From Bacillota bacterium (lineage in GTDB: Bacteria > Bacillota_I > Bacilli_A > ML615J-28 > CAG-698): a stretch of DNA of 64,000 bases. The position numbers were made by a program, and so were the translations under genes. Position 1 is the stretch's first letter, and each line of letters opens with the position of its first letter. Under the pieces are notes generated by a model. It searched no databases. It had not been told where the DNA came from and worked only from the letters and a program-made list of their open reading frames with translations. Below, in pieces: positions 4,934-61,827 of this stretch. The DNA lies in the NCBI GenBank assembly GCA_023410025.1, contig JAEYQM010000061.1, positions 12,050 through 76,049 on the forward strand, read 5' to 3'.

Positions 4934-5615
4934 TGTTTATAAAGTTTCTTTCTTCTCTAATATAATTTGGATGATATTAGGTCCGACCATTGTCTTAATC
5001 CCTGTTTCTATTTTTATGTATCAAGGAATTAATCTTGAGGATTTAACTGATTCCAATACAATTTCGGCGGTGATGGTTTCTCAAGCAATTAGTAATGTCA
5101 TTCCAATAGTGATAAGCGTAGTCCTATTGAGAAGATTACTTTTAAGTGAGTTAATAGATTTTAAAAATAATTTAAAACGAAGCATAACTATTGTCCTTTT
5201 AGGAATATCAGGAATTTATTTTGCTAACATTATCCTTTCAATAATCTATAGTTTATTAAATGTTACGGGGGATTCTGAAAACCAACAAATTATTGAAACG
5301 GCTTTATCATCACCAGTTAGACCTGTTGTAATAATTATGATATTAGTCTTAGCACCAATTCTAGAGGAATTAATATTTAGAAAATTCTTAATTGGATATT
5401 TTAAATCTAAACAATTGAACCCATGGATTCCATATATTATTAGTATTGTTGTGTTTGCAGCAATTCATATGAACTTTACAATTGAAGATTTAATATTTTT
5501 CCCAGCATATTTGGTATTATCAGCTGTTATTACATTAGCTTATAAATACTCTGGAAACAATATTTATGTAGCTATATTAGTACATTTTCTAAATAATTTA
5601 TTATCGCTAATATGA
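4914..5615 (+). CDS. CPBP-family intramembrane glutamic endopeptidase (CAAX protease / Abi-like)
   Basis: Multi-TM protein with the EExxxR motif (APILEELIFRKF), FAAIH and HFLNN motifs. It overlaps the thrS end by 20 nt. Confidence 0.75.
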   Translation: MKMETDNVYKVSFFSNIIWMILGPTIVLIPVSIFMYQGINLEDLTDSNTISAVMVSQAISNVIPIVISVVLLRRLLLSELIDFKNNLKRSITIVLLGISGIYFANIILSIIYSLLNVTGDSENQQIIETALSSPVRPVVIIMILVLAPILEELIFRKFLIGYFKSKQLNPWIPYIISIVVFAAIHMNFTIEDLIFFPAYLVLSAVITLAYKYSGNNIYVAILVHFLNNLLSLI

Positions 5616-6514
5616 ACTTAAAAAAATATGGTAAACTTGTAGAATGTGCAAGAGAAAATTTTGAAAATAGTAAATATCAAGAAGCTTTAGAAATATTAGA
5701 AAAAGCTTTTGAAATGGGAATTATTCTAGATGATTTAAATCTTTTAGGATTTATCTATATCGAACTAGGAAAATATAGCCTTGCTGAAGATGTATTTAAA
5801 AAAGTTCTTTCTCAAGAAAGAAATCCAAAGAGTTATTATGGTCTAGGTTGTATAAATGATCGACTTGGAAAATATAAAGAAGCAGTAATAATGTATGAAG
5901 AGTCGATTAGATTTGATGATACAAATCCTTTAGTATTATTTGACTGTGCATATTTATATGATGATTTAGGAAATAAAGATAAATCAAAATACTATTATGA
6001 AAAATTATTAAAGATTAATCCTGATGATTTTTGGGGTAATATAAATTTAGGTACTATTTATGATTGTGAAGGAAATAATGAAAAAGCATTGGAACTTTTT
6101 CTTAAAGCCTATAGTATTGATCCTAATTCACCTATGGTCAATTATAACTTAGGTGTTACCTATAGTAATCTTAATAATAAAGAATTAGCTTTGAAACATT
6201 ATTTTGAAGAAATAGAAAAAAATAATAAATATGTACCTGCATATTATAATTTAGCTCTATTATATAAGGATGCTTATAATGATTATGAAAAAGCAAAATT
6301 GTATTATCTAGAAGGATTAAAGATTGATCAAAATAATTATCTTATATGGTATAATCTTGGTTGTTTATATGCCTTAATGAAAGACTATAAAAATGCATAT
6401 GATTGTTTCTTAATATTAAAATATAGGTCAAAAGAGTTATTTGAATCAATGAATGAAGATGAAGAACTTGAAGAGTTCAAATTATCTGATGAATATAAGA
6501 GATTATGGGAATAA
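5612..6514 (+). CDS. tetratricopeptide-repeat protein
   Basis: It contains repeated 34-aa units with the A/Y/L TPR pattern (e.g. YYGLGCINDRLGKYKEAVIMYEESIRFDDTN and WGNINLGTIYDCEGNNEKALELFLKAYSIDPNS). Its start overlaps the CPBP stop (ATGA). Confidence 0.75.
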   Translation: MNLKKYGKLVECARENFENSKYQEALEILEKAFEMGIILDDLNLLGFIYIELGKYSLAEDVFKKVLSQERNPKSYYGLGCINDRLGKYKEAVIMYEESIRFDDTNPLVLFDCAYLYDDLGNKDKSKYYYEKLLKINPDDFWGNINLGTIYDCEGNNEKALELFLKAYSIDPNSPMVNYNLGVTYSNLNNKELALKHYFEEIEKNNKYVPAYYNLALLYKDAYNDYEKAKLYYLEGLKIDQNNYLIWYNLGCLYALMKDYKNAYDCFLILKYRSKELFESMNEDEELEEFKLSDEYKRLWE

Positions 6515-6564: not shown

Positions 6565-7047
6565 ATGATAATTGATGTTAAAAAATACTTAAGAAATTCA
6601 TCAAGAGAAACTTATACTGTAAAACAAGGCGATAGTTTATATAAAATATCAAAACAATATGGTATATCAATTGATGATTTAATGGAAATTAATGAACTAG
6701 ATAGTACTATGATTTATCCAAATCAAGTTTTAATTATTTCTAAGTCTATTCCAACTGGTGGAATGTATTTTGTTGAGTATATTGTTAAACCTAATGATAC
6801 TTTAAGTACAATCGCAAAAGCAAACAATGTTACTACTGAATCAATCGGAAAATATAATGATGTAACAAAAATAATTTTAGCTGAAGGGCAAATAATGAAT
6901 TTACCTGGATCATACAAAACATATTTAATTCAAGAAGGAGACAAAATTTCAGATATTCTTGCTAAAACAAATTTAACTCTAGATCAATTCTTAGAGTATA
7001 ACCTATCTAAATTATTGACTCCAGGTATCATTATATATTACAGATAA
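6565..7047 (+). CDS. LysM-repeat protein (3 LysM domains, no signal peptide)
   Basis: Three LysM-like units are present: YTVKQGDSLYKISKQYGISIDDLMEIN, YIVKPNDTLSTIAKANNVTTESIGKYN and YLIQEGDKISDILAKTNLTLDQFLEYN. RBS GAGGTG. Confidence 0.75.
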   Translation: MIIDVKKYLRNSSRETYTVKQGDSLYKISKQYGISIDDLMEINELDSTMIYPNQVLIISKSIPTGGMYFVEYIVKPNDTLSTIAKANNVTTESIGKYNDVTKIILAEGQIMNLPGSYKTYLIQEGDKISDILAKTNLTLDQFLEYNLSKLLTPGIIIYYR

Positions 7048-15888: not shown

Positions 15889-17487
15889 ATGGATGCTTTA
15901 ATAGGAATTATTGCGTTTCTATTTGTATTGGGATTAATTGTCGTTATTCATGAGTTTGGACATTTTATATTTGCTAGAAGAGTAAATATTTTGTGTCGCG
16001 AATTTGCTTTTGGTATGGGTCCACTTGTTTATAAAAAGAAAAAAGGAGAAACTCTATATTCAATTAGAGCTCTACCTATTGGTGGATTTTGTGCAATAGC
16101 AGGTGAAGAAGTTGAAAATAATCCACTCGCTAATTTACAAACAATTCGAGTAGATATGGAAAATGACGTCATTAAAAAAATATATGTCGACCCAAAGAAT
16201 ACTGTTTTTAATGATAAAAAAGAATATAAATTAATTAGCTATGAATTATTTGATGAAAAAAATACTGGTGATTTATTCATGGTATTAGAATCTAATGGAG
16301 AGGAAATTAAATATGCAGTTGACCCACAAGCTATGTTTGTACTTGCTAAGACTGAATATCAAATTGCTCCATATAATAGAACAATTGGTTCAAAAAGAAA
16401 AAGAGATAGAGCTTTAGTAATTTTTGGTGGACCATTAATGAACTTTCTATTAGCAATAGTTGTATTCTTTATTGCTGGTTTAATTACTGGATTTCCTGAT
16501 CCTAATACTAAAACTTTAGGTGTGGTAACTGAGGATACACCTTCATACCATGCGGGTTTAAGGGAAAATGATCAAATAATTTCTTTAAAAAATGGTGATT
16601 TATTTGTAGAAATAGAAAAATGGAGTGATGTATCAAACTTCATGTCTAAATATACAAATGGAAATTATAATGGAAAAATCTCTGTTACGTATTTACGTGA
16701 TGGAAAACAATTTGAGACACTAGTAAATCCACAGATTGCTATCTATTCAGCGGGCATATTTAGTGACTTTAAAAAAGATGGTGTATTTATATTATCTGCA
16801 TCAGGAAAAGCCAGTGTTGCTGGTCTTGTTGAAGGTGATGAAATTATTAGAGTTAATGGTGTTATGGTATCTTCATGGAAAGAAGTGTACACAACATTTG
16901 CAAATAATCTAAATGGTGATGAAGTAAATTTAGAAATATTACGTAAAGGTGATATTAAAGAAATTACTGTTAAGCCATATTCTAAAAATGTAATGGACTC
17001 ACAAAAGTCTTTATCTGGTGATATTGTACCGATTGCAAAACTTGCAATTGGTGTATCGCAAGAATACAAATTCAGTTTACCAAAGAGCGTTAGTTATTCA
17101 TTTAGCCAAACTTTTTCATCAGCTGGATTAGTATTTAAAACATTTAAATTATTACTTTCAAAGAATAATAATGAAGTGGGTGTTGATGATTTATCTAGTT
17201 TCCTAGGAATTTATCAATTATCAAAAAGTGTGGCTATAAACATTGGATTTGTTGGATTATTAAATTTAATTGGTTTATTAAGTGTCAATGTAGGTTTATT
17301 AAACTTATTACCTATTCCAGCACTTGATGGTGGAAGATTAGTATTTATAGGATATGAAGCTATTACTAAGAAAAAACCAAACCCAAAAGTAGAAACAATA
17401 CTAATTACAGTAACAATGTTTATACTATTTGCTTTTATGATTTTTGCGTTTTATAATGATATATTGAGAATGATCGGAGTGAAATAA
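15889..17487 (+). CDS. rseP: RIP metalloprotease RseP/RasP (site-2 protease, PDZ domains)
   Basis: HEFGHF zinc motif in TM1, PDZ-like central region, and a C-terminal LLNLLPIPALDGG motif. At 532 aa it is longer than the usual ~420. Confidence 0.9.
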   Translation: MDALIGIIAFLFVLGLIVVIHEFGHFIFARRVNILCREFAFGMGPLVYKKKKGETLYSIRALPIGGFCAIAGEEVENNPLANLQTIRVDMENDVIKKIYVDPKNTVFNDKKEYKLISYELFDEKNTGDLFMVLESNGEEIKYAVDPQAMFVLAKTEYQIAPYNRTIGSKRKRDRALVIFGGPLMNFLLAIVVFFIAGLITGFPDPNTKTLGVVTEDTPSYHAGLRENDQIISLKNGDLFVEIEKWSDVSNFMSKYTNGNYNGKISVTYLRDGKQFETLVNPQIAIYSAGIFSDFKKDGVFILSASGKASVAGLVEGDEIIRVNGVMVSSWKEVYTTFANNLNGDEVNLEILRKGDIKEITVKPYSKNVMDSQKSLSGDIVPIAKLAIGVSQEYKFSLPKSVSYSFSQTFSSAGLVFKTFKLLLSKNNNEVGVDDLSSFLGIYQLSKSVAINIGFVGLLNLIGLLSVNVGLLNLLPIPALDGGRLVFIGYEAITKKKPNPKVETILITVTMFILFAFMIFAFYNDILRMIGVK

Positions 17488-28338: not shown

Positions 28339-28346
28339 AATTTGAA

Positions 28347-28376
28347 AACAGATGATTTATATCATTTGTTTTTTTA
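28347..28376 (+). terminator. rho-independent terminator after lemA
   Basis: AACAGATGAT / TTAT / ATCATTTGTT (one G-U pair) followed by T7. Confidence 0.75.
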
Positions 28377-28507
28377 TTTACTTATTTTTTCCCTATTATT
28401 CGACACGTTTATACAATTTTTTCTATAAATATCAAAATATTGATAATTTAATACTAAAAATACATTAATAATAAATAAAATAATTAAAAATCTCAATAAA
28501 ATGAGTA

Positions 28508-28536
28508 TTGACAATAAAATACAATTTTGATATAAT
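28508..28536 (+). promoter_or_regulatory. perfect-consensus sigma-A promoter of the peptide/regulator cassette
   Basis: TTGACA (28508-28513), exact 17-nt spacer, TATAAT (28531-28536) with TG at -15/-14. Confidence 0.7.
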
Positions 28537-28582
28537 TAAACTAGAAATACCGAAAATTGGTGTTTTTAATAAGGGGGATAGT

Positions 28583-28741
28583 ATGAAAAAATTAATCAAA
28601 GTTGTTTTATGTCTTATATTAGTTGCTATGCTTAGTTTTGCACCTAAATTAACTCAAGGACCTGGCGATGGTGGACCAGGACCTGATGATCGTCCAATTT
28701 CATATATTAATGGAATTCCAGGATCAACTGAAGGAATGTAA
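28583..28741 (+). CDS. small secreted propeptide (52 aa): Sec-type signal + Pro/Gly/Asp-rich pro-region; candidate signalling-peptide precursor
   Basis: ATG 28583 follows GGGGGA. The product is MKKLIKVVLCLILVAMLSFA|PKLTQGPGDGGPGPDDRPISYINGIPGSTEGM. The longer track ORF start (28508) coincides with the promoter -35. Confidence 0.55.
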   Translation: MKKLIKVVLCLILVAMLSFAPKLTQGPGDGGPGPDDRPISYINGIPGSTEGM

Positions 28742-28775
28742 TTAGGTTGTATTAATAAGGGAGTAGGGAGGAACC

Positions 28776-30008
28776 ATGATCTTTTTCGATTTCGAAATAC
28801 AAAACTACTTTAAGAGTAATAAATATTTAATAGCAATTGTTAATTACTCTAGGAAAAAAAGTAAAATAAGTAAAAAACAGATGCAAAAAGATAACCTTAT
28901 CTCTCATGCAACATTTAGAAGAGCAGAAGTGACCGATTTTGTCGGTCACTCTGAACTTTTAAATAAACTTGCTTTTTATTTTAATATTCCAATTGATTAT
29001 GATATGAATTTAATAAATGAAATAAATGATTATTTCAATCAATTTTATACATATTTGTATTTTAATCAACTTGATAAAATGAAAGAATATTATCAAAAAA
29101 TAGAATCAAAGAAAAGCATGATGGAAAATAGTATCTTATTATCAATCTATCACTTTGCTAGGGTTATTTATTATATAAGTTCACCAAAGCGAGTTGAAAT
29201 TGACGCAATATCTGAATCTCTTGAACAATTAGAATTATTTAGAGAAGATCTAACTGATATTTTTCAATTTTTATTAGATCAATATACGTATTACTTTTAT
29301 TCATTAAATCATCAGTCAGAAAATGCAATTAAGTATTATGATAAAGTATATACAGAATCAAAAAAATTTCCACGTCACATCCCGCTAGTTTTATATCAAA
29401 TGGCATTAAATCATTATTTTGTAAATGATTATGCTAATTCTATTTTTTATTCAATTGAAGCATTAGAAAAATTAGAAGCTGATTTAAACTATAGTAGAGC
29501 ATTGTTATGCAATTTAAACATTGCCATTTGTTTTGAACGTTTAGACAACACAGTAAAGAGCAAAGAAATTATTAATAAGATATACTTGCATATGGTTGTC
29601 AATGATAACCCAAGAACAAGATATCTAGCTGATTTAACACTTGCCAACTGTTATGTAACAGAAAAAAATTATGAACTTGCCATTGAAAAATTTACCAATC
29701 TTGAATCAACAAGGCAAGTCAAAGGTGAAAACTCTTTAATGATAATTTATTGTTATTATAAATTAGGTAAAGAAGAAGAACTTAAAAAACTTGCAAGTTT
29801 TCTTCATAAAGAAAGAGAAAACAAAAATTTCTTCTATGGTTATGATGATCTTGTTATTTTATTTGAAGAATTATTAAGTAGAAATAAGAAGAGTATCTTC
29901 AATAAATTTTTGATTGCTCAAAAGAGCTTCCCAGCATATAGCGATTCAAAAATTGTCGATCTAGTATTTAAAGAATTAAAAGCGAGAAAGATTATTCAAA
30001 AGAGCTAG
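28776..30008 (+). CDS. cytoplasmic HTH (XRE-like) + TPR-like repeat regulator, RNPP-like architecture
   Basis: RBS GGGAGG. The N-terminus KISKKQMQKDNLISHATFRRAEV...LLNKLAFYFNIPID resembles HTH_3. The remaining ~330 aa form helical repeat units rich in Y/F/L/A in TPR-like spacing. There is no signal peptide or TM. Confidence 0.6.
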   Translation: MIFFDFEIQNYFKSNKYLIAIVNYSRKKSKISKKQMQKDNLISHATFRRAEVTDFVGHSELLNKLAFYFNIPIDYDMNLINEINDYFNQFYTYLYFNQLDKMKEYYQKIESKKSMMENSILLSIYHFARVIYYISSPKRVEIDAISESLEQLELFREDLTDIFQFLLDQYTYYFYSLNHQSENAIKYYDKVYTESKKFPRHIPLVLYQMALNHYFVNDYANSIFYSIEALEKLEADLNYSRALLCNLNIAICFERLDNTVKSKEIINKIYLHMVVNDNPRTRYLADLTLANCYVTEKNYELAIEKFTNLESTRQVKGENSLMIIYCYYKLGKEEELKKLASFLHKERENKNFFYGYDDLVILFEELLSRNKKSIFNKFLIAQKSFPAYSDSKIVDLVFKELKARKIIQKS

Positions 30009-30056
30009 TCCCTACCCAACATTAAATTATAACAATTACTAGTTTAGGAGAATAAG

Positions 30057-31127
30057 ATGAAAGATAAAATAGTACATCATATAAGAAGAATTAGTAAAAA
30101 ATCTAAAATGAACGATGAAAATTATTTACAAAAAATTATTAATTCTTCCATTGATTATTTTTATGAATTAATTAATGTAGGTTACTCACATTTCTTGAGT
30201 TATAAAATAGTTATTAGAAAATCCAAACACTTAATTAATGAGATTCAGAAAACGCAAAACTACAAACATAATACTACATTATACTTAATTGGAATATTAC
30301 TTGCTGCAACAAATTATGTGCTATTTTTTCTGCTAAATCGAAACATTAGTCATATATTTATTTTTGATTGCTTTGTAATAATAGCAATCTTTTTATTTTA
30401 TTTATTTTTATTTAAAAATAATATTAATAAATTATTTAAAGATAAATTAAAAAAATTTCTTGTACTAACAATTTCTAATATATTAATTTATTATTTGCTG
30501 ACCACTATTTTAAAATTAAACTTTTATATAGTAATTAGTATTCTCTTAGCATTAAGTAATATAATATGGTGCATAAATCAAAAAAAAGGTGGAAATATAT
30601 TATTAGTAACTATACCATCATTATTATTTTTTATATTTGTAAGTTATAATAATATTTTTAAAATTAATAATATTAATTTGCTTTTAATAATAATGGTAAG
30701 CTCATTTTTCTATTTTTTTATTAATGTAAATTTTAAATATCTTCATAATTTATACTTATTTATTCTAACAATAATTTTTATTGTAGTTATAAATATGTAT
30801 AGACCATTTATCGAAATCGTATATTTATACGTATTAATTTATGCATTATTATCCTTTCTAATTATTAAGCGTGTTTCCAAGATTATTACAAGAGAAGACT
30901 ATAAAACTATATACAAATTATTTCTTTTCGCATTAATCTTTATTTACTGTCTTGATATTGGAATTGGTATTGCTAAAGATATAGAAACTTCACTTATTAG
31001 TAATGATGAATTTATTTCTTTTATTTTATTTATTGAAATTACTGAATTAATATATGCATTTAATATTAGTTTTTTTAGTTTTAGTGATGAAATAAAATTA
31101 AAAGAATTAATAAACTCAACTTACTAG
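30057..31127 (+). CDS. polytopic membrane protein (about 10 TM), unknown function
   Basis: The 356-aa ORF with RBS AGGAG is extremely I/F/L/N/K rich. It is the last gene before a terminator. Confidence 0.55.
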   Translation: MKDKIVHHIRRISKKSKMNDENYLQKIINSSIDYFYELINVGYSHFLSYKIVIRKSKHLINEIQKTQNYKHNTTLYLIGILLAATNYVLFFLLNRNISHIFIFDCFVIIAIFLFYLFLFKNNINKLFKDKLKKFLVLTISNILIYYLLTTILKLNFYIVISILLALSNIIWCINQKKGGNILLVTIPSLLFFIFVSYNNIFKINNINLLLIIMVSSFFYFFINVNFKYLHNLYLFILTIIFIVVINMYRPFIEIVYLYVLIYALLSFLIIKRVSKIITREDYKTIYKLFLFALIFIYCLDIGIGIAKDIETSLISNDEFISFILFIEITELIYAFNISFFSFSDEIKLKELINSTY

Positions 31128-31142
31128 AAGTTGAGTTTGTTA
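31112..31142 (+). terminator. terminator closing the peptide/regulator/membrane cassette
   Basis: AAACTCAACTT / ACTAG / AAGTTGAGTTT forms an 11-bp perfect stem with the stop codon in the loop. The T-run is weak (TTTGTT). Confidence 0.55.
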
Positions 31143-31206
31143 ATGGAGATAAATAGTTTGCTAATTTACTTATTATTTGATATAATAGTAGAGGTCAGGT
31201 GAGTTC

Positions 31207-36198: not shown

Positions 36199-38652
36199 AT
36201 GAAAAGATTTGCAGGATTTTTAATTTTATTAATGCTAACATTCCTTTCTGGATGTTTGATAGATAATGAAATTAATAAAGATACCACTTTAACTGGTGTG
36301 TCTAAGGTAGAAATTGGAAATGTAATTAAGTTGGATGCAAATGAAACAGAGGAAATGATATGGTCAAGTTCTAGCGAAGCAGTTGCTATGGTAATTGATG
36401 GTTATGTATTCGGGTTAAGTGAAGGTAGAACAATGATTTCTGCGACACTTGTCTCAAATCCAGATATTATTAAATCAAAATTAATTACTGTTGTTAAAAG
36501 TAGTGGACCAAATAACCAAATAATTACTATTACAGGTAACCGTGATGTTGAAATAAATAAAAGTACTGTTTTAAAAACAAATTCAACAGTTGCGATTAAA
36601 TGGGTTAGTAGTAATCCAGAAGTTGCTGCAATAGATAGTAACGGTAAAGTAGACGCTTTATCAGTTGGAACTAGTGTAATCTTTGCTTATGATGAAAATG
36701 ACTTTTTAAACTATGGTACTTTTGAAATTGAAGTTGTTAATAAAAGATTAGAAATATATGGACCAACAGAAATTGGATTAAGAGAACAACTTACTCTAAA
36801 AGCCGAAGAAGGATACAAAGTAGTATGGTTATCTAGTAATGAAACAATTATTAAAGTTGACCTAAATGGTAATCTTACAGCTTTAGATTTTGGTACAGCA
36901 ACAATTACTGCTTATGATGTTTCTAATCGTGATATTAGTGGTAGTATAACAATAACTGTTGTTCCACCTAAAAAAGGAATTGATAATAGTTATTCATATC
37001 AAAGAACAAAGATATTAAGTATTAATGAAGCAAGATATCAAATGGAGTTATTAGATGTTGATACTGTAAACTATACAGTTGATACTGAAGTATTAAAATT
37101 AGTTAATGGGGAAACTAAACCTATAACTATTCAAGATCTATACATTGGTATGGATAATGTCTATGTTGAAGTAGGGGAAGATACAAAAACAATTTCAAGA
37201 ATTTTGGTTGATGGTGAACCTAAATTTAGTAATATTAGAGTAGCAATTAGAAAAACAATTGATGATATTGCCAATGTTAGTACTTTATATCATGATCGTG
37301 TTACATTTACATTAAGTGGAAATACTGTATTAAAAACTTTTGATAACTCATCATATACAGAACTGAGCAATGGTTCAAGAATTACTATTACTATTAATAG
37401 TTCAGGTTTTATGCAAGTAAGACTAAACAACTACACAATTATTACAACTAATAAACGAATAATTTTTAGTGCAAATGATAATCAAGAAACTTCATTTACA
37501 AGTATTACAAGAGCCTCAAGAGTACCAACTTATGCTGATAATCTTGAAGTAAGTGTTGTAAATGGTAAATTGTTAGTTGTAAATGACATTGATTTAGAAA
37601 AATATCTTACTAAAGTAGTTCCTTCAGAAATGCCTTCAAGTTGGAATTTAGAAGCATTAAAAGCTCAAGCAGTAGCTGCTAGAACTTATGCTTATATGGA
37701 TATTTTAAATAAAGCAAATGATCAATATGGATATACAGTTGATGATAGTACAAAGAGTCAAGTATATAATAATACAAATCCTCAAGCAAGTACAAATCAA
37801 GCTATACTTGAAACAAAGGGAAAAATAATGATGAATGGGGAAGAAGCTATTCAAGCATACTATTACTCTTCATCTTCTGGTTTAACTGCTTCAGCCCATG
37901 AGGTATGGATTAAAGATAGTATGACTGAACCAGTTCCGTATTTAATTGGTCAAAATCTAACAAAAGATTCATCAAACAACCCATTACAATTTGATTATCA
38001 AAGTGAGGCAAGCATGCTTCAATTCTTTAAGACAATTAAAATGTACACACCAGATTTAAATTCTACATATCATCGTTGGAAAGTTACAATGACTTATGAA
38101 CAATTAACAACTACAATTAATACTAATATTAAAGTGACTTATGCTTCAACTCCTCAATTAGTTCTTACAAAAGAAGGAGAAAATTATGTGTCTAAAGCCT
38201 TACCTGAATCAATTGGTAATGTGAATGATATTTATGTTTCTGAAAGAGGAACGAGTGGAGTTGTTGTAAGTATAGATATTGTAACAACAACTGGAACCTA
38301 TCGAATTGTTAATCAATACAATATTCGTTTCACAATTAGACCAAAGGATGCTGGGTCAACTGTTAGAAGATATTATGCAAAATATACAGATTCTGATTAT
38401 GTAGGAAACGCAACAGGGGACTCAATATTACTATCAGGATTCTTTGCAATTGAAAAAGTAGCGGGAGAATTAACATTTTATGGTGGTGGAAATGGTCATG
38501 GTGTCGGTATGAGCCAATATGGTGCCAATGGTTTAGCCAATGAAGGATATAACTTTATTTATATTTTAAATACATATTATAGTCAAATTGATTTAGTCGA
38601 TATTACTAATAATTATGTACCATTAGGAAACTTTAGAGATTACTTTAAATAG
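36199..38652 (+). CDS. lipoprotein with four Big_2-like Ig domains and a C-terminal SpoIID/LytB-type domain
   Basis: Lipobox LSGC is at residues 16-19. Repeated units of type VTITGNRDVEINKSTVLK...VKWVSSNPEVAAIDSNGKV...G are present. SpoIID signatures are VVPSEMPSSWNLEALKAQAVAARTYA and GHGVGMSQYGANGLA. Confidence 0.8.
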   Translation: MKRFAGFLILLMLTFLSGCLIDNEINKDTTLTGVSKVEIGNVIKLDANETEEMIWSSSSEAVAMVIDGYVFGLSEGRTMISATLVSNPDIIKSKLITVVKSSGPNNQIITITGNRDVEINKSTVLKTNSTVAIKWVSSNPEVAAIDSNGKVDALSVGTSVIFAYDENDFLNYGTFEIEVVNKRLEIYGPTEIGLREQLTLKAEEGYKVVWLSSNETIIKVDLNGNLTALDFGTATITAYDVSNRDISGSITITVVPPKKGIDNSYSYQRTKILSINEARYQMELLDVDTVNYTVDTEVLKLVNGETKPITIQDLYIGMDNVYVEVGEDTKTISRILVDGEPKFSNIRVAIRKTIDDIANVSTLYHDRVTFTLSGNTVLKTFDNSSYTELSNGSRITITINSSGFMQVRLNNYTIITTNKRIIFSANDNQETSFTSITRASRVPTYADNLEVSVVNGKLLVVNDIDLEKYLTKVVPSEMPSSWNLEALKAQAVAARTYAYMDILNKANDQYGYTVDDSTKSQVYNNTNPQASTNQAILETKGKIMMNGEEAIQAYYYSSSSGLTASAHEVWIKDSMTEPVPYLIGQNLTKDSSNNPLQFDYQSEASMLQFFKTIKMYTPDLNSTYHRWKVTMTYEQLTTTINTNIKVTYASTPQLVLTKEGENYVSKALPESIGNVNDIYVSERGTSGVVVSIDIVTTTGTYRIVNQYNIRFTIRPKDAGSTVRRYYAKYTDSDYVGNATGDSILLSGFFAIEKVAGELTFYGGGNGHGVGMSQYGANGLANEGYNFIYILNTYYSQIDLVDITNNYVPLGNFRDYFK

Positions 38653-38742: not shown

Positions 38743-41700
38743 ATGAAACAAAAACATTTAAAACGCCTTAGTATTGAAAATACCCATTTAATGGACATAT
38801 TTGTGGACAAACATTATATTGAAATTGGAAATGTTCATGATCAAAAACTTAGCCGTCTATTAAATAATAAGATTATATTGCTTGATGACATTGTTGATTA
38901 TTCTATTCACAGTGTTGGATTAGGTAGTTCAAAACTAACGGATGAAAAGACAAGAAGATATTTACCATTTATTAATATTCTAAATATACACAATAAAGAT
39001 GAATCACTTCAATTATTTCTTACATATGGAATTTACTATGGAAAGAAAAATGATAGACAAGAATTTTTTGCGCCTATTATTTTAATTCCTGTTTTATTAT
39101 ATAATGACGATTATAATTTTTACGTAAGGATGTTATCAAAACCAATTGAAAATAGTATATTGGTTAATTATTTAAAAGAGCAAGGAATACATATAAATAA
39201 AGAAAAAATTGATGATATATTTAGTTTTGATAGATATTTAAATCAATTTACTAAAAATGGTGGACAAATTAGATTAGAATCATATTTTACGTTTGCAAAG
39301 ACAGAAGAATTACCTGTAGTTATCAATCATGATAAATTCTCTTTACGTAATGATTTTGAAAAAAACCTTGATAGTAGATATTATGTAAATGATGAATCTG
39401 AAGCTAATATAATTACTAAACTTAATAATCGACAAAGAGCAGCTGTATTAAGAGCAAAATCAGGAAGTAGTTTTGCTATTAATGGATTAAAGGGAACTGG
39501 AAAAACTACAACTTTAATAAATATTGCTAGTGATGCTATTTATAATAATAAAAAGGTCCTTTATCTATCTAATAAAAAAGAATCAATTGATTTTGTTGAG
39601 AGAGAATTTGAAAAAAATAATTTGAAATTCTTAGTTAATAATCTAACAAAAAGTCCTAAATATCGTTTTTCAAATTATAAAGAAATTAAAACAGAAGTCT
39701 ATGATGAAAAATTAGTTAAGGATAACTTGTTAAGGTTATATAAGGAAGTAAATAATTATGAAAAATTTCTTGGTGGAAGGATTAGAAACTTTAGGTTTAT
39801 TGATGTAGTTAATGAACTTATAAATTTAAAACCTGCCAGTGATGAATTTAAATGTGATGATATAAAAGAATTATATAAATTTGAATTTGAAGAGATTATT
39901 TATAGCTTAAGACAAATTGAAGAAGCAATGAAAAAAATCAGTTTCAAAACTTCAATATTTACAAGTATTCCAATTAATAATAGTGTAAAATATCCTAACC
40001 AAGTATCGAATTTGATTTTCCAAATTCATAAATTATTTGTACAATTAAATGAGATAAACAAGGAGTTACAATCAAAATATGGTTTTATCGAAATAGAAAA
40101 CTATGCAAGATTCAAAAACTATATAAGTGATGTAATTAGCTTAGATGTTAATAAAGTTCCAAAACTTTGGAGAAATCCAAAAAATTTTGAAATAGCAACT
40201 AAACTATTCCCTCAATTAAAATCTTTAATCTATTCATTACAAGAATATGAATTATATATTGACTGGGATTATAAAAATGTTGAATCTATTGACATTTATA
40301 AGATGATTAAAAGTTTAATTGGTGATTACTTTACAGAAGAAGATGGATACAAAGTAGACAGAATTATTTCTTCATCAAAAACTTTGGTTAACAAAGCAAA
40401 AACAGGTATTCAAAATTATCGTTTACTATCTAAGAAGATAGAAAATATAAAGAAAATTTTGGATTGGGATTTTGATGATGATGATATTAAAACCTATGAA
40501 GAGATTACTAAACTTGCTGATTTTTTAGATAATTCGATTTATCATAAATCATGGTTAAATATTGAAAATAGTGAGAACATCTTAAATGAATTAAAACAAA
40601 TATCAACTGATTTAAATAAACATATTTTACTAAGCAAACAATATTCAAAATATTTTAGTAACCAAAAAGACATTAATGAAAATATTTCATATATAGAAAA
40701 ATTAATTAGCGAAGATAAACAGCCAAAAAAATTTAAAAATATTAATTTAAATGATTTGTTAAATGATACGATAATTTATCGTGATTTGAGAAATAAAACA
40801 GCAAGTTTGAATAGAAGACATAAGGAGTTAACGGGATTTGAATATAGCCTAGCATATGACACAACTATTGACTTTAAGAAGTTTATAACTTACATAACTC
40901 AAATAAAGGATTTAGTTGCAAAGGAAAAAGTATTAGCTTTTTTAAATACAGTTAACGATGACGATTTAGAAGTATATATTCATGATCTTGTTGATTTTAA
41001 AAGATCATATCTAATTTTTAAGGAAGTGTATGAATATACTTGTACAGTCCTTTATAAAGAAAAATCACATCAAGTGAGTGAACAAGTTAGACTTTTATCA
41101 CATTTCTTAAAGTATGTAAATCAGGTATCAAGAGTATGTACGGAAATGTCTTTAGTCTTAAAAGATCCAAGTAAGAAACTAAGTTTGGATTTATTTATTA
41201 AATTAAAAAATCAATTAAATCAACTTAATCGTATTAAAAAGGAACTTAATAATAATACCCATTATCCTCATTATTTCGGTAGTCTATTTAAGCATAGTAA
41301 GACAAATATTGGTGAGGTAAATAATATTATAAATGCTTTTGATAGTTATATTAAATGCTTTCAATCAACAGAAGCTATAGCTTCAAGTTTGAAGTTAGTT
41401 AATTTTGAAAACTTATGCAAGGTAATGAATGACGCTTCTAAGATTGTTGTTGAAATAAATGAAAGTTTTAAATTGTATAACAAGATATTTAAAGATGGAA
41501 TTGGTAACTATTATTATGATAATTTAGAAAATGTTATTAAATACTTAGATAAATTAAATAACGCCAAAGAAGAATTAAAGGCATATTTAGAATTGACTGA
41601 ACAATTACGTGTTATTGAAGGACATAAATTATTTGTTTTGAGTGAATACATAATTAATTCCAATTCAACAAGCCTTGTTGAAAACTTTAAGTACACATAT

Positions 41701-42894
41701 TTTAAAACTCTTTATGACATATATACAAATGGTTTTAATGTATCATCAGAAGTTATAAGTAATAACTTAGTAGAAATAGTAAATGAAGAGAATAAATTAA
41801 TTAAAATTAATATTCAAAAATTAAATTATTATAGAAGTGTAGCATCAGGTGAAAATGATAGTGCCAAAAATTTAACTCTAGCATCTACTTCGATTTTAAA
41901 TTATTTATTAGATTACACACAATTTGATCTTATCTTAATTGATGATTCCCATGTATCAAATTCAAATGAATTTTTTAATGCAATAAATGGTAAGCAAGTA
42001 ATTATCGCTGGGGATAATACAAGTGTTACTTCATCAGGAACAAACTTAATCGCAAAAATGCGTCCAAAGAATGTTATGAATTTATACTATCGTTATAATC
42101 CTACTCCACTTAATTTACTAAATTATATTCCCAAGACTCATGGTATTTATTTAAATAATCCTGAAGATAATATAGGTTATGAAATTACTAATAAAGAAGC
42201 TTTATCAATTATTGTTGATTTATTATTAAAAAATAGAGAAGTTGAAATAAATTATTTTGTTCCAACAATCGTTAAGAAACTTAGTTTTATTGAAAAATTA
42301 TCACAACAATTAATAAACAATGGTTTTTCTGCTGAAGAAATATTTAGAATAATTACTAAGCAATTAAATATTGTTGATTTGTTTACAGGTTATGCATATG
42401 ATGCAAGTTATAATATTGTTGATTTAGATGATTATTATAATGTATCAAATGAATTCTTAGAAATAAAATATATAAGTAGGCTTATTACTGCCCAAAAGAA
42501 ATTATATATTATTGACAAACAAAACTTTATAAGCAATGATAATGATGTTTTGTTTATCCATATGCTTAAACAAGTTTTTTCAAATAACAATTTTATTAAT
42601 AAAAAAATACAAGATGTTGCTTTAAAACTATCTAAACGCCTAAGTGAACTAGATATAAAAGTATTTGGTGACTTATATCAATTTACATTAGTATTAGAAA
42701 GAAATAATACCCTTTATAATGTATTATTATTTGTAAATCCAAATAAGAATCGTATTGATTTATTAGAAGATTATAGAGAATATTATCTTGCATCTAAGGC
42801 GAAAAATATGAATGTATTATATATTTGGTTAATTGATTTATATGAAAATATGGATAAAGTTATAGATTATATCAATAAGGAGACTTTATCATGA
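38743..42894 (+). CDS. giant (1383 aa) degenerate SF1 (Upf1/AAA_11-AAA_12-like) helicase-related protein with DUF4011-like N-terminus and endonuclease-fold-like C-terminus
   Basis: Walker A is GLKGTGKTTT (K254, 39493-39510). The Walker B-like motif LILIDDSH lies only at residue 1067 (41941-41952). YRYNPTPLNLLNY resembles the qYRmhp motif, and SRLITAQKKLYII is a motif VI-like segment without Arg. The N-terminus FFAPIILIPVLLY resembles DUF4011. Confidence 0.5.
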   Translation: MKQKHLKRLSIENTHLMDIFVDKHYIEIGNVHDQKLSRLLNNKIILLDDIVDYSIHSVGLGSSKLTDEKTRRYLPFINILNIHNKDESLQLFLTYGIYYGKKNDRQEFFAPIILIPVLLYNDDYNFYVRMLSKPIENSILVNYLKEQGIHINKEKIDDIFSFDRYLNQFTKNGGQIRLESYFTFAKTEELPVVINHDKFSLRNDFEKNLDSRYYVNDESEANIITKLNNRQRAAVLRAKSGSSFAINGLKGTGKTTTLINIASDAIYNNKKVLYLSNKKESIDFVEREFEKNNLKFLVNNLTKSPKYRFSNYKEIKTEVYDEKLVKDNLLRLYKEVNNYEKFLGGRIRNFRFIDVVNELINLKPASDEFKCDDIKELYKFEFEEIIYSLRQIEEAMKKISFKTSIFTSIPINNSVKYPNQVSNLIFQIHKLFVQLNEINKELQSKYGFIEIENYARFKNYISDVISLDVNKVPKLWRNPKNFEIATKLFPQLKSLIYSLQEYELYIDWDYKNVESIDIYKMIKSLIGDYFTEEDGYKVDRIISSSKTLVNKAKTGIQNYRLLSKKIENIKKILDWDFDDDDIKTYEEITKLADFLDNSIYHKSWLNIENSENILNELKQISTDLNKHILLSKQYSKYFSNQKDINENISYIEKLISEDKQPKKFKNINLNDLLNDTIIYRDLRNKTASLNRRHKELTGFEYSLAYDTTIDFKKFITYITQIKDLVAKEKVLAFLNTVNDDDLEVYIHDLVDFKRSYLIFKEVYEYTCTVLYKEKSHQVSEQVRLLSHFLKYVNQVSRVCTEMSLVLKDPSKKLSLDLFIKLKNQLNQLNRIKKELNNNTHYPHYFGSLFKHSKTNIGEVNNIINAFDSYIKCFQSTEAIASSLKLVNFENLCKVMNDASKIVVEINESFKLYNKIFKDGIGNYYYDNLENVIKYLDKLNNAKEELKAYLELTEQLRVIEGHKLFVLSEYIINSNSTSLVENFKYTYFKTLYDIYTNGFNVSSEVISNNLVEIVNEENKLIKINIQKLNYYRSVASGENDSAKNLTLASTSILNYLLDYTQFDLILIDDSHVSNSNEFFNAINGKQVIIAGDNTSVTSSGTNLIAKMRPKNVMNLYYRYNPTPLNLLNYIPKTHGIYLNNPEDNIGYEITNKEALSIIVDLLLKNREVEINYFVPTIVKKLSFIEKLSQQLINNGFSAEEIFRIITKQLNIVDLFTGYAYDASYNIVDLDDYYNVSNEFLEIKYISRLITAQKKLYIIDKQNFISNDNDVLFIHMLKQVFSNNNFINKKIQDVALKLSKRLSELDIKVFGDLYQFTLVLERNNTLYNVLLFVNPNKNRIDLLEDYREYYLASKAKNMNVLYIWLIDLYENMDKVIDYINKETLS

Positions 42895-54437: not shown

Positions 54438-54572
54438 TTTTTTTGATAATTCTTATTTAAAAAAATACAAAAAATATAAAAAACAATAAGTTATCACTAT
54501 TTGCATATATTTACCAATAAAATATGTAAAAATATGCAAAAAACCAATACTTAATACTCAATATAATGAGTA

Positions 54573-54601
54573 TTGACTAATTTTTTAAATTATGTTATAA
54601 T
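54573..54601 (+). promoter_or_regulatory. sigma-A type promoter upstream of the hybrid histidine kinase
   Basis: TTGACT (54573-54578), 17-nt spacer, TATAAT (54596-54601). The -35 overlaps an 8-bp inverted repeat. Confidence 0.55.
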
Positions 54602-60165: not shown

Positions 60166-61827
60166 ATGATGAAGAAAATACTAATTATTTTACTGTTATT
60201 TTTTGTTGTAGGATGTACAGTTAATGATAATAATAAAAATGTTAGTCCAGACGCAATTACAATTATTAATGAATTAGATAAAAATGAAGTTATAATAGAA
60301 GGAAAAGCTTTGAAGTTAATTGCAATAGTTACTCCGTCTAATGCTCCTCAAGATGTTATATGGAGTAGTAGTGATGAGCAAATTGCTACAGTTAATGAAA
60401 ATGGTGAAGTTACTGGACTTAAAGAAGGATCTGTAACTATAATTGCAAAAACAAAAGATTTTGAAGTCTATGATATGATAGATTTAATTGTATATAATGA
60501 TGTCCGCAATTTAAAAACAATTGAAGGAATCATTGAATACTTAGATACGATTATACCTTCAATAGCAGGAGAAACATTACCGTTTGAATACCGTATTGAA
60601 GGAGCTAGATTATCTTGGAGTACTAGTGATGAAAATATTATCACTCGCACAGGACGTGTTAATCCTAGTAATGTTGATAAAGTAATAACTGTAGTTTGTA
60701 AAATAGATTTAGGAAGAGTATCAGGGGAGTTTACAAAAGAAGTTATGGTAAAAAAGTATAATTTAAGAGATATATCAAACAAGAAATTAGCTTTTACATA
60801 TTTATATGATTATTCAGGAAGTTATAAAGGATTTAGAGAAGGCGATTTAGAAAAAATAGATGTTATAAACTATGCCTTTGGCGGGATATCTGCAGGAAAA
60901 GTAGTTGTATCAACATCAAGTAAATTATTAGATATTACAGCGGAAGCTCATAAACATGGGGTAAGAGTAGTTTTAGCTGTAGGTGGATGGGGAGTAGATG
61001 GTTTCTCTGATGCTGCATTAACTGCAGCTTCAAGAAAAGTATTTATTGATTCATTACTTGTTGCTATTGATAAATATAGTTTAAATGGAATTGATTTTGA
61101 CTGGGAATACCCAACTTCAACAGCGGGTGGATTAATTAAAGCAAGACCAGAAGATAAAGTTAATTTCACATATTTAGTTCAAGAAACTTATACTGCACTA
61201 AAGGCAAAAGATCCTAGCCTTACATTAAGTATTGCTGTTCCAAATGGATCATGGGCAGCATCGAATTACTATGAACCAGCAAAATTAAATAATTATATTG
61301 ATTACCTACACTTAATGAGTTATGATATGATTAATTATGCTTCTTCAACAAATAAAATTGTTCAATCTAGCCATCATACAAATATGTATTCATCTACTAA
61401 TAGTGTGAGTTCAGCTGAAAATGGAGTTAAAGCATATTCTGATTTAGGTATTTCCAAATCAAAAATTGTTATTGGTGTAGCTTTCTATGGACATGGATTT
61501 AAAGTAAGTAACGCAGGTAATAATGGAATGAAAGCAAATACTGATACTGCAATAAGTGGAAATAAATTTACAGTTTCATATAATGATATTGTAGATAAAT
61601 ATTTAAGTGATTCTAAATATCAAGTATTCTATGATGAACAAGCAAAGGCACATTGGTTATATGGTGATAATACTGTAATTAGTTATGATAGCCCTGAATC
61701 AATTGCAGTAAAAGCTGAGTATGCAATTAATAATAATTTATGTGGTTTAATGGTATGGCAATATAACCAAGATCATAAAACTTCAATCTTAACAAATGCA
61801 ATTTATGATAATTTAAACAAAAAATAG
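60166..61827 (+). CDS. lipoprotein with Big_2 Ig-like domain and GH18 (chitinase-like) domain
   Basis: Lipobox VVGC. The Big_2-like unit is LKLIAIVTPSNAPQDVIWSSSDEQIATVNENGEVTGLKEGSVTI. The GH18 catalytic block is LNGIDFDWEYP. The start may be the second ATG (60169). Confidence 0.8.
   Translation: MMKKILIILLLFFVVGCTVNDNNKNVSPDAITIINELDKNEVIIEGKALKLIAIVTPSNAPQDVIWSSSDEQIATVNENGEVTGLKEGSVTIIAKTKDFEVYDMIDLIVYNDVRNLKTIEGIIEYLDTIIPSIAGETLPFEYRIEGARLSWSTSDENIITRTGRVNPSNVDKVITVVCKIDLGRVSGEFTKEVMVKKYNLRDISNKKLAFTYLYDYSGSYKGFREGDLEKIDVINYAFGGISAGKVVVSTSSKLLDITAEAHKHGVRVVLAVGGWGVDGFSDAALTAASRKVFIDSLLVAIDKYSLNGIDFDWEYPTSTAGGLIKARPEDKVNFTYLVQETYTALKAKDPSLTLSIAVPNGSWAASNYYEPAKLNNYIDYLHLMSYDMINYASSTNKIVQSSHHTNMYSSTNSVSSAENGVKAYSDLGISKSKIVIGVAFYGHGFKVSNAGNNGMKANTDTAISGNKFTVSYNDIVDKYLSDSKYQVFYDEQAKAHWLYGDNTVISYDSPESIAVKAEYAINNNLCGLMVWQYNQDHKTSILTNAIYDNLNKK

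Follow-up and report, generated by a model that had tools for sequence, protein, structure and literature searches.

Does a promoter-led cassette of three genes in an uncultured member of the Bacilli encode a peptide quorum-sensing system? The cassette lies in a stretch of 64,000 nucleotides (hereafter the window) of contig JAEYQM010000061.1, assembly GCA_023410025.1, and encodes a 52-amino-acid propeptide, a 410-amino-acid regulator with a predicted helix-turn-helix (HTH) and tetratricopeptide repeats (TPR), and a 356-amino-acid membrane protein. The original prediction, made from the DNA letters, had read the first two as a divergent RNPP-like pair of propeptide and receptor, and the three open reading frames (ORFs), separated by gaps of 34 and 48 nt, were all found in place (Table 1). 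We conclude that the cassette is probably a chromosomal peptide-signalling system of the RRNPP type, and that the fold of the regulator, the conservation of the propeptide gene and the co-occurrence of the two genes support the divergent pair that had been proposed.

We modelled the regulator with AlphaFold2 from an alignment of 25 sequences and obtained an all-helical structure (predicted local distance difference test, pLDDT, 93.2; predicted TM-score 0.87). The model has an N-terminal bundle of four to five helices (residues 16-68), followed by a long TPR-like superhelix. When it was compared with the PDB using Foldseek, ranks 1 to 30 were taken exclusively by NprR or Rap (E 9e-6 to 5e-4; TM-score normalised to the target, maximum 0.71), and generic TPR proteins first appeared at rank 31. 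These matches comprised NprR with and without NprX, the phage phi3T Rap, RapF, RapJ, RapI and the pLS20 Rap; NprR-NprX (4gpk), phage phi3T Rap (8rsv) and RapF were at the top, with peptide-bound forms included. This is the fold, an HTH followed by a TPR superhelix, on which the proposed pairing had been made to depend. Judged by the model, the regulator is related, at some distance, to the NprR/Rap branch of RRNPP receptors and has kept its HTH.

The assignment of HTH and TPR comes from the structure prediction and from profile matches, not from curated domain matches. The family profile reached HTH_3(+RapH_N)+TPR proteins (P0038, P0042, P0043 and P0047) at E 1e-5 to 1e-8, its alignment with these classical HTH_3+RapH_N+TPR proteins spanned both the HTH and the TPR regions, and profile positions 20-75 aligned with the HTH_3 domain of P0038, P0042 and P0043. 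A SHAT[FY]RRAE motif in the predicted recognition helix was nearly invariant across the family. Model and profile thus uphold the HTH/TPR architecture that had been read from the sequence, but every Pfam TPR match of the regulator fell under the gathering score. Pfam HTH_3 gave no match to the window regulator at E<=1, and its one HTH-related match was to NCBIfam RstR, far under the cut-off (E 0.024). Among 25 family members HTH_3 was found in 5 (best E 1e-4) and RapH_N in none. The family is very small: 5.8 billion proteins contained 27 clusters with at least 51% identity, and when the profile was run exhaustively against 1.84 billion representatives, just 33 matched at E<=1e-3. Another ORF of the window, at 5612-6514, was considered as a paralogue of the regulator and rejected as a plain TPR protein lacking an HTH.

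We then asked how far the propeptide gene is conserved. By tblastn, a counterpart was found 22-80 nt 5' of the regulator gene in 11 of 11 distinct loci having upstream DNA (distinct lineages, counted among loci L001-L018), and each of the 11 ORFs was preceded by a strong Shine-Dalgarno sequence. All orthologues begin with MKK and a hydrophobic stretch of 15-18 residues; this signal region is followed by a variable linker, a core and a variable tail, and in the window propeptide the pro-region is rich in Gly, Pro and Asp. The core, [GY]-P-[DA]-[DE]-R-P-I-[SGAC]-[YWH], is nearly invariant across loci, and the tail is free to vary in sequence and in length (2-22 residues). Different loci use different synonymous codons for the core (Arg CGT/CGA/CGC/AGA; Ser TCA/AGT/AGC; Pro CCA/CCT; Ile ATT/ATA/ATC), which shows that purifying selection acts on the peptide sequence. 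The small ORF is therefore conserved, as a genuine propeptide gene should be. The C-terminal residues had been put forward as the signal; their ...GIPGSTEGM tail is not conserved, whereas the internal PDDRPISY core is, and from this pattern the active signal is most likely an internal segment containing PDDRPISY rather than the C-terminal residues. Phr_nterm matched the propeptide weakly, below threshold and in the signal region only. Membership of the Phr, AimP or PhrK families was rejected, there being just this sub-threshold likeness.

A signal-peptidase site had been placed between FA and P, a position at which most orthologues carry Pro at +1. Because Pro at +1 blocks cleavage by signal peptidase I, cleavage probably occurs a few residues further on. 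The window also encodes an RseP/Eep-type M50 site-2 protease with a PDZ domain (15889-17487). In enterococci and streptococci, pheromone precursors are processed by Eep homologues, and the M50 protease could be relevant here because the apparent signal-peptidase site has Pro at +1. Three loci carry the peptide gene twice in tandem, the additional copy standing between the promoter and the main one (L009:402-536, L016:3380-3514 and L010:3610-3780). These additional copies look degenerate: L009 and L016 lack a clear start codon, L010 has a frameshift, and the core is changed to PADRPIGY or DDRPIDY.

Placement of the peptide gene ahead of the receptor gene had been called atypical, and the wider comparison agrees. 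Distant homologues of the regulator (profile E 1e-13 to 1e-65) also have an upstream, co-oriented small ORF of exported type, acidic or Pro-rich: L023 and L025 each carry a 53-amino-acid signal-peptide ORF, and L024 a lipoprotein-like precursor ending GDDPDPIIPLFIIK. Upstream of the gene for another distant homologue, P0028, an ORF cut by the contig end (L021:2-202) contains four tandem 14-amino-acid IVYPKELADDPEPE units and, by its sequence, looks like a multi-copy pheromone precursor; its unit DDPEPEIVY loosely resembles the DDRPISY core, and the tandem repeats help to show where the signal peptide begins and ends. At L028, in contrast, the small ORF lies downstream of the regulator gene, 12 nt after that for P0042, a classical NprR-like HTH_3+RapH_N+TPR protein. 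From the upstream small ORFs of the family and its distant homologues we conclude that the peptide-first order is a family trait. The ORF downstream of P0042 (L028:2769-2912) encodes a 47-amino-acid signal-peptide protein that ends ...DDDNQYPDPVPPQSSKVI, with an acidic and Pro-rich tail. In L026 (1-1619) and L022, the distant regulator paralogues P0029 and P0032 stand in tandem 107 nt apart, a gap too short for a 50-amino-acid peptide gene.

How might such a receptor act on its own locus? We compared the upstream regions of the 11 loci, anchored on the -35 hexamer. The sigma-70-type promoter, which scores 12/12 at 28508 with TG before TATAAT, matches the consensus at 12/12 positions in 10 of the 11 orthologous loci and at 11/12 in L001, with a 17-nt spacer in all loci but L013, which has 16 nt. 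Amid otherwise divergent AT-rich intergenic DNA, a conserved dyad, (A/T)(C/A)TC(A/T)-N6-TGAGTA (O1), ends exactly where TTGACA starts. Its right half, TGAGTA, does not vary among the 11 loci, and its left half is kept as CTCA/ATCA; one helical turn separates the half-sites, the spacing expected of an XRE-type dimer. A second site, O2, lies 61-62 bp upstream of O1 (centre to centre), or about six helical turns, in 11/11 loci. Both sites travel with the cassette in L003, where the neighbourhood is unrelated (shikimate pathway upstream, BaxI/PolC downstream). We infer from this conservation that the receptor uses O1 and O2 as its own operators. Among the distant homologues L023, L024 and L025, a motif similar to O1 was seen upstream of the peptide gene in L023 alone, as TCA-N6-TGAG beside a -35-like hexamer, which is too little to generalise.

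A search of the 64 kb for exact TGAGTATTGAC outside the cassette returned one further copy only, and the window holds two copies of the 21-nt composite CTCA-N6-TGAGTATTGAC where 0.00 would be expected. The second of them belongs to a palindrome with its own promoter, and 72 nt 3' of this operator and promoter begins a gene for a hybrid sensor kinase. On this evidence we predict the hybrid-kinase gene to be the best candidate output of the regulator. About 600 N-terminal residues of the kinase, and residues 750-950, have no domain assignment.

The cassette appears to be transcribed as a unit. Both intergenic gaps fold no better than shuffled sequence, which is consistent with a single transcript for the three genes, and the hairpin at 31106-31144 is the probable transcript end. 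It had been described as a terminator; the hairpin itself is strong (-18.7 kcal/mol, z -5.3, with 0 of 200 shuffles folding equally well), but no U-tract follows it on the plus strand and a terminator scanner calls it on the minus strand only, making it atypical rather than a textbook intrinsic terminator. Upstream, a U-tailed hairpin (28344-28375, dG -13.4) closes the LemA operon. An Rfam scan of the whole window found no RNA families, leaving no riboswitch or small-RNA explanation for the locus. The cassette promoter had been taken for the only perfect one in the accessory part of the window, but it is not the only one nearby: a perfect TTGACA-16-TATAAT on the minus strand (26367-26340) drives a MatE gene divergent from the DUF3137-LemA operon, and a further perfect promoter lies on the plus strand at 2747-2775.

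Taken together, we infer the following circuit, from export, processing, import and peptide binding to the action of the receptor at O1 and O2 and its sign. A strong sigma-A promoter would yield one mRNA for the propeptide, the intracellular receptor and an accessory membrane protein. The propeptide would leave the cell through Sec and lose residues from both ends, giving a mature signal that holds P-D-D/E-R-P-I-x-Y/H/W; this signal would be re-imported and bind the TPR superhelix of the receptor on its concave side. The receptor, as an XRE-type HTH dimer, would recognise O1 (CTCA-N6-TGAGTA) and the weaker O2 six helical turns upstream; peptide binding would switch its DNA-binding or oligomeric state, so that the cassette would be autoregulated, and the receptor would also act, beyond it, on at least the promoter of the PAS-GGDEF-hybrid histidine kinase gene, which has the same operator. 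Repression by the apo-receptor is slightly favoured because the promoter is a conserved perfect consensus; O1 and O2 would then be bridged, by analogy with PrgX, and the repression would be lifted by the peptide. A site centred near -45 is also compatible with activation.

Several observations weigh against an RRNPP-type circuit. Above threshold, the regulator matched nothing in Pfam, NCBIfam or the PDB sequences, and the propeptide had no curated Pfam or NCBIfam match. No oligopeptide permease (Opp) genes were found in the 64-kb window, so that re-import is unsupported. The second promoter (54556-54601) has no convincing O2, and the link between regulator and operators is one of association. 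A further point is raised by L027, the closest relative, whose regulator is 82% identical to that of the window. It is the one locus in which an intact regulator occurs without a peptide gene, and a decayed remnant is found there, which agrees with the co-occurrence expected of a true pair. The stretch between promoter and regulator (L027:9538-10000) aligns with the window in places, for example at aaagttgtttta, but every reading frame of it is broken by stops, and PDDRPI is missing. By this alignment the L027 peptide gene is a decayed pseudogene and its loss secondary. The promoter, O2, O1 (with TGAGCA), the regulator and the membrane gene are all kept, and the decay indicates that the peptide segment deteriorates fast without selection. 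The L027 receptor, intact and constrained (ratio of nonsynonymous to synonymous substitution, dN/dS, against the window regulator ~0.10), shows that receptors can be maintained when no signal is encoded in cis; the organism may be a signal non-producer or eavesdropper, or may carry the peptide gene elsewhere in its genome.

The membrane protein bears on whether the circuit has a third component. By hydropathy analysis it has a K/R-rich N-terminus of 74 amino acids and ~10 hydrophobic segments. Its gene had been predicted to be part of the module, and it is present in the window and in four other lineages (the L001 group, L006, the L009 group and L027; 4/10 other lineages, 5/11 counting the window), but L005, L008, L012 and L017 lack it and keep peptide, receptor and operators, and in L003, where those three are kept as well, it is cut to a 78-amino-acid remnant of the N-domain. 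From this distribution we regard the protein as accessory, whether as a partner or as the output, and not as a core component. It also evolves fast: identity between lineages is ~20-25%, and between the window and L027 it is 41%, against 71% for YczE, 82% for the regulator and 86% for LemA. No polar residue is invariant in the transmembrane region of the orthologues, which makes an enzymatic role unlikely. Nothing in Pfam (DUF1700 included), NCBIfam or the PDB profiles matched the protein above threshold, and a word-index homologue search returned itself and one orthologue only. AlphaFold2, given a two-sequence alignment, produced a poor model (pLDDT 48) in which residues 1-60 alone were confident; Foldseek matches of this model were discarded as meaningless (best E 0.4).

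Could the membrane protein be the sensor? The peptide would then be perceived outside the cell by the 10-transmembrane protein, whose HAAS-like N-domain would hold or release the regulator, and no import would be needed. We consider this unlikely, although the N-domain gives it some substance, being the one part of the protein that was modelled with confidence (three helices, pLDDT 80-88) and the only one under strong constraint (dN/dS 0.10 in the first 60 residues, 0.34 overall). NF038403 (perm_prefix_1) matched the L009 orthologue at 23.8 bits, under the cut-off of 30 (E 2.9e-5), and the L003 orthologue below threshold at E 0.012; the window N-domain gave no match. This model presumably corresponds to the HAAS module. 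HAAS domains are N-terminal three-helix modules on multi-transmembrane proteins that are always paired with a transcription factor (PMC11237479), and in L003 the membrane gene moved with peptide and regulator into the new context. Like the HAAS-PadR dyads (PMC11237479), the cassette thus sets a multi-transmembrane protein with an N-terminal cytoplasmic three-helix domain beside a transcription factor. Here, however, the partner is an XRE-HTH-TPR protein and not a winged-HTH PadR, the conserved GxP kink is absent, and the membrane gene is dispensable in several lineages. The closest structural matches of the receptor, moreover, bind imported peptides directly. In a mixed form, which we regard as doubtful, the HAAS-like domain of the fast-evolving protein might tether or modulate the RRNPP receptor, with output through the c-di-GMP/hybrid-kinase pathway; such a tethered receptor would merge peptide quorum sensing with the sensing of membrane signals. 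To our knowledge, no such membrane coupling has been described for any RRNPP receptor.

It is also improbable that the regulator answers another cue, or none, and that the small ORF is an unrelated secreted peptide, bacteriocin-like or of the surface, with the membrane protein as its immunity or export partner. L027, with receptor and membrane protein and no peptide gene, could be read in this way; the membrane protein evolves fast (41% identity against 82-86% for its neighbours), which is common among immunity proteins, and some RRNPP-like regulators have no known peptide. The peptide gene, however, stands beside the receptor in 11/12 lineages as well as in distant homologues, its core is short, acidic and proline-rich rather than cationic or amphipathic, and it has no double-glycine leader. 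Neither modification enzymes nor an ABC exporter were found nearby, and the loss of the membrane gene from four lineages that keep the peptide misfits an immunity role. Most improbable of all is that O1 and O2 are bound by another transcription factor or form an unusual promoter upstream element, with the receptor acting elsewhere or by protein contact as Rap does: the purely associative link, the prominence among the fold matches of Rap proteins, which do not bind DNA, and the match of curated HTH models to only 5/25 members would fit, but the operators accompany the cassette into the unrelated L003 context, the O1 half-sites have the one-turn spacing of an XRE-type dimer, SHAT[FY]RRAE is nearly invariant across the family, like the TGAGTA half-site, and the N-terminal region aligns with the bona fide HTH_3 of NprR-like proteins.

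With an RRNPP-type system as the preferred reading, we compared the cassette with known members. It has the features of RRNPP(A) systems in its predicted TPR-type superhelical receptor, like Rap, NprR, PlcR, PrgX, Rgg and AimR; in an N-terminal HTH, as judged from the model helices at 16-68, the HTH_3 matches in 5/25 members and the profile alignment; and in the adjacent conserved propeptide gene (11/11 loci and the L027 remnant). No curated subfamily model (RapH_N, Rgg_C, PlcR, AimR, Phr, AimP and others) recognised it. The best structural match is NprR-NprX of the Bacillus cereus group (4gpk and 5dbk, TM-score normalised to the target 0.64-0.71). Both receptors combine an HTH with Rap-like TPR, and the active part of the exported NprX propeptide (SKPDIVG) is internal, not strictly C-terminal, as it would be here. 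They differ in that sequence identity is only ~14%, the window regulator has no RapH_N or other curated match and has ~15 extra N-terminal residues before the HTH, and the peptide gene is downstream in NprR-NprX and upstream here in all loci. Operator, accessory membrane gene and host (uncultured Acholeplasmataceae-like Bacilli) are different as well, and the combination that defines the NprR-NprX subfamily, HTH+RapH_N+TPR with a downstream nprX, is not that of the window cassette.

Rap-Phr systems of Bacillus and the phages phi3T and phi105 share the TPR superhelix (8rsv, 4gyo, 4i9c). The window propeptide has a Phr-like MKK-hydrophobic signal region (sub-threshold Phr_nterm) and, from its sequence, would likewise be exported by Sec and processed outside the cell. 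Rap, however, has an N-terminal three-helix bundle, no HTH, and acts on proteins, whereas the window regulator has an HTH; phr follows rap, and here the peptide gene comes first. A tblastn search of phage and plasmid collections gave no matches to the cassette, and a mobile-element origin was rejected on that ground. With PrgX/PrgQ (Enterococcus pCF10) and PlcR-PapR the cassette shares the proposed autoregulation of its own locus by an RRNPP factor through palindromic boxes. PrgX has two operator sites, one beside the -35 and the two bridged by a tetramer, a layout similar to that of O1 and O2; the PlcR box is a 16-bp dyad with a 4-nt centre, and O1 is likewise a dyad. The operator sequences are nevertheless different, prgX/prgQ are divergent and papR follows plcR whereas here a co-oriented peptide gene comes first, and the PrgQ and PapR peptides derive from C-terminal or signal-sequence segments whereas the conserved part here is internal. 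Neither PrgX nor PlcR was among the top 50 Foldseek matches of the regulator.

The original prediction had named no characterised system of this kind in Mollicutes-like or Erysipelotrichia-like lineages, and this agrees with two large RRNPP surveys (RRNPP_detector, as far as accessible, and RRNPPA evolution) and with a structural-phylogeny paper, which name no Mollicutes, Tenericutes, Acholeplasma or Erysipelotrichia. A literature search combining these taxa with RNPP or quorum sensing returned nothing relevant. The family is invisible to domain-based surveys because the receptor has no above-threshold TPR or HTH match, and the cassette looks like an uncatalogued RRNPP-type subfamily with a peptide-first order.

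Table 1. Coordinates of the cassette, its operator-like sites, the predicted second target and an additional gene of related loci (positions in the window unless a locus is named).
Feature	Position	Strand	Remarks
O2, distal site TATCAAAATATTGATAA	28430-28446	+	family consensus WCTCA-N6-TGATAR
O1, palindrome TCTCAATAAAATGAGTA	28491-28507	+	directly abuts -35 hexamer
Promoter TTGACA-17-TATAAT	28508-28536	+	-35 at 28508-28513, -10 at 28531-28536; extended -10 TG; 12/12 match
Propeptide gene, 52 amino acids	28583-28741	+	product MKKLIKVVLCLILVAMLSFAPKLTQGPGDGGPGPDDRPISYINGIPGSTEGM; Shine-Dalgarno AAGGGGGA 5' of start
Conserved core P34-I42 (PDDRPISYI)	28682-28708	+	in propeptide gene
Core-bearing propeptide stretches, candidate signal region			GPGPDDRPISYING; KLTQGPGDGGPGPDDRPISYINGIPGSTEGM
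Regulator gene, 410 amino acids	28776-30008	+	GGGAGG upstream; 34-nt gap after propeptide gene
Membrane-protein gene, 356 amino acids	30057-31127	+	48-nt gap after regulator gene; ~10 transmembrane segments
Strong hairpin, 17-bp stem	31106-31144	+	overlaps membrane-gene stop codon; probable transcript end
Second palindrome and promoter, ACTCAATATAATGAGTA and TTGACT-17-TATAAT with TG	54556-54601	+	predicted regulon site
PAS-GGDEF-HisKA-HATPase-receiver hybrid sensor kinase gene, 1331 amino acids	54673-58668	+	Pfam domains; predicted target
Gene for ~140-amino-acid protein	L001:7479-7910		
Gene for ~140-amino-acid protein	L005:6533-6955		
Gene for ~140-amino-acid protein	L006:5908-6342		
Gene for ~140-amino-acid protein	L008:5394-5816		
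Gene for ~140-amino-acid protein	L009:3195-3626		
Gene for ~140-amino-acid protein	L012:2890-3315		

The related loci come from metagenome-assembled genomes labelled Bacilli or Acholeplasmataceae, from digesters, landfill and fermentation samples (L001 from GCA_053527915.1, L006 from JBAYTC01, L008 from DUOT01). In most of these relatives a protein of ~140 amino acids, with two transmembrane segments and a C-terminal beta-rich domain, is encoded between the cassette and a YczE/DUF6198 gene; it is missing from the window. Elsewhere the window encodes SpoIID-domain, LysM-like and GH18/Big_2 proteins (36199-38652, 6565-7047 and 60166-61827), which suggest, by their predicted domains, a walled organism despite the Acholeplasmataceae label of its relatives, and a 1383-amino-acid ORF (38743-42894) with no Pfam match at E<=1e-5.

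If our reading holds, RRNPP-type signalling would extend to an uncultured, very low-GC lineage of Bacilli related to Acholeplasmataceae. Sequence alone would then give a near-complete and testable circuit: a candidate core of the mature peptide, a pair of operators through which the cassette regulates itself, and a putative output. The natural pseudogene of L027 would provide a handle on signal non-producers and thus on social evolution, and the candidate output gene would link quorum sensing to a GGDEF/hybrid-kinase protein.

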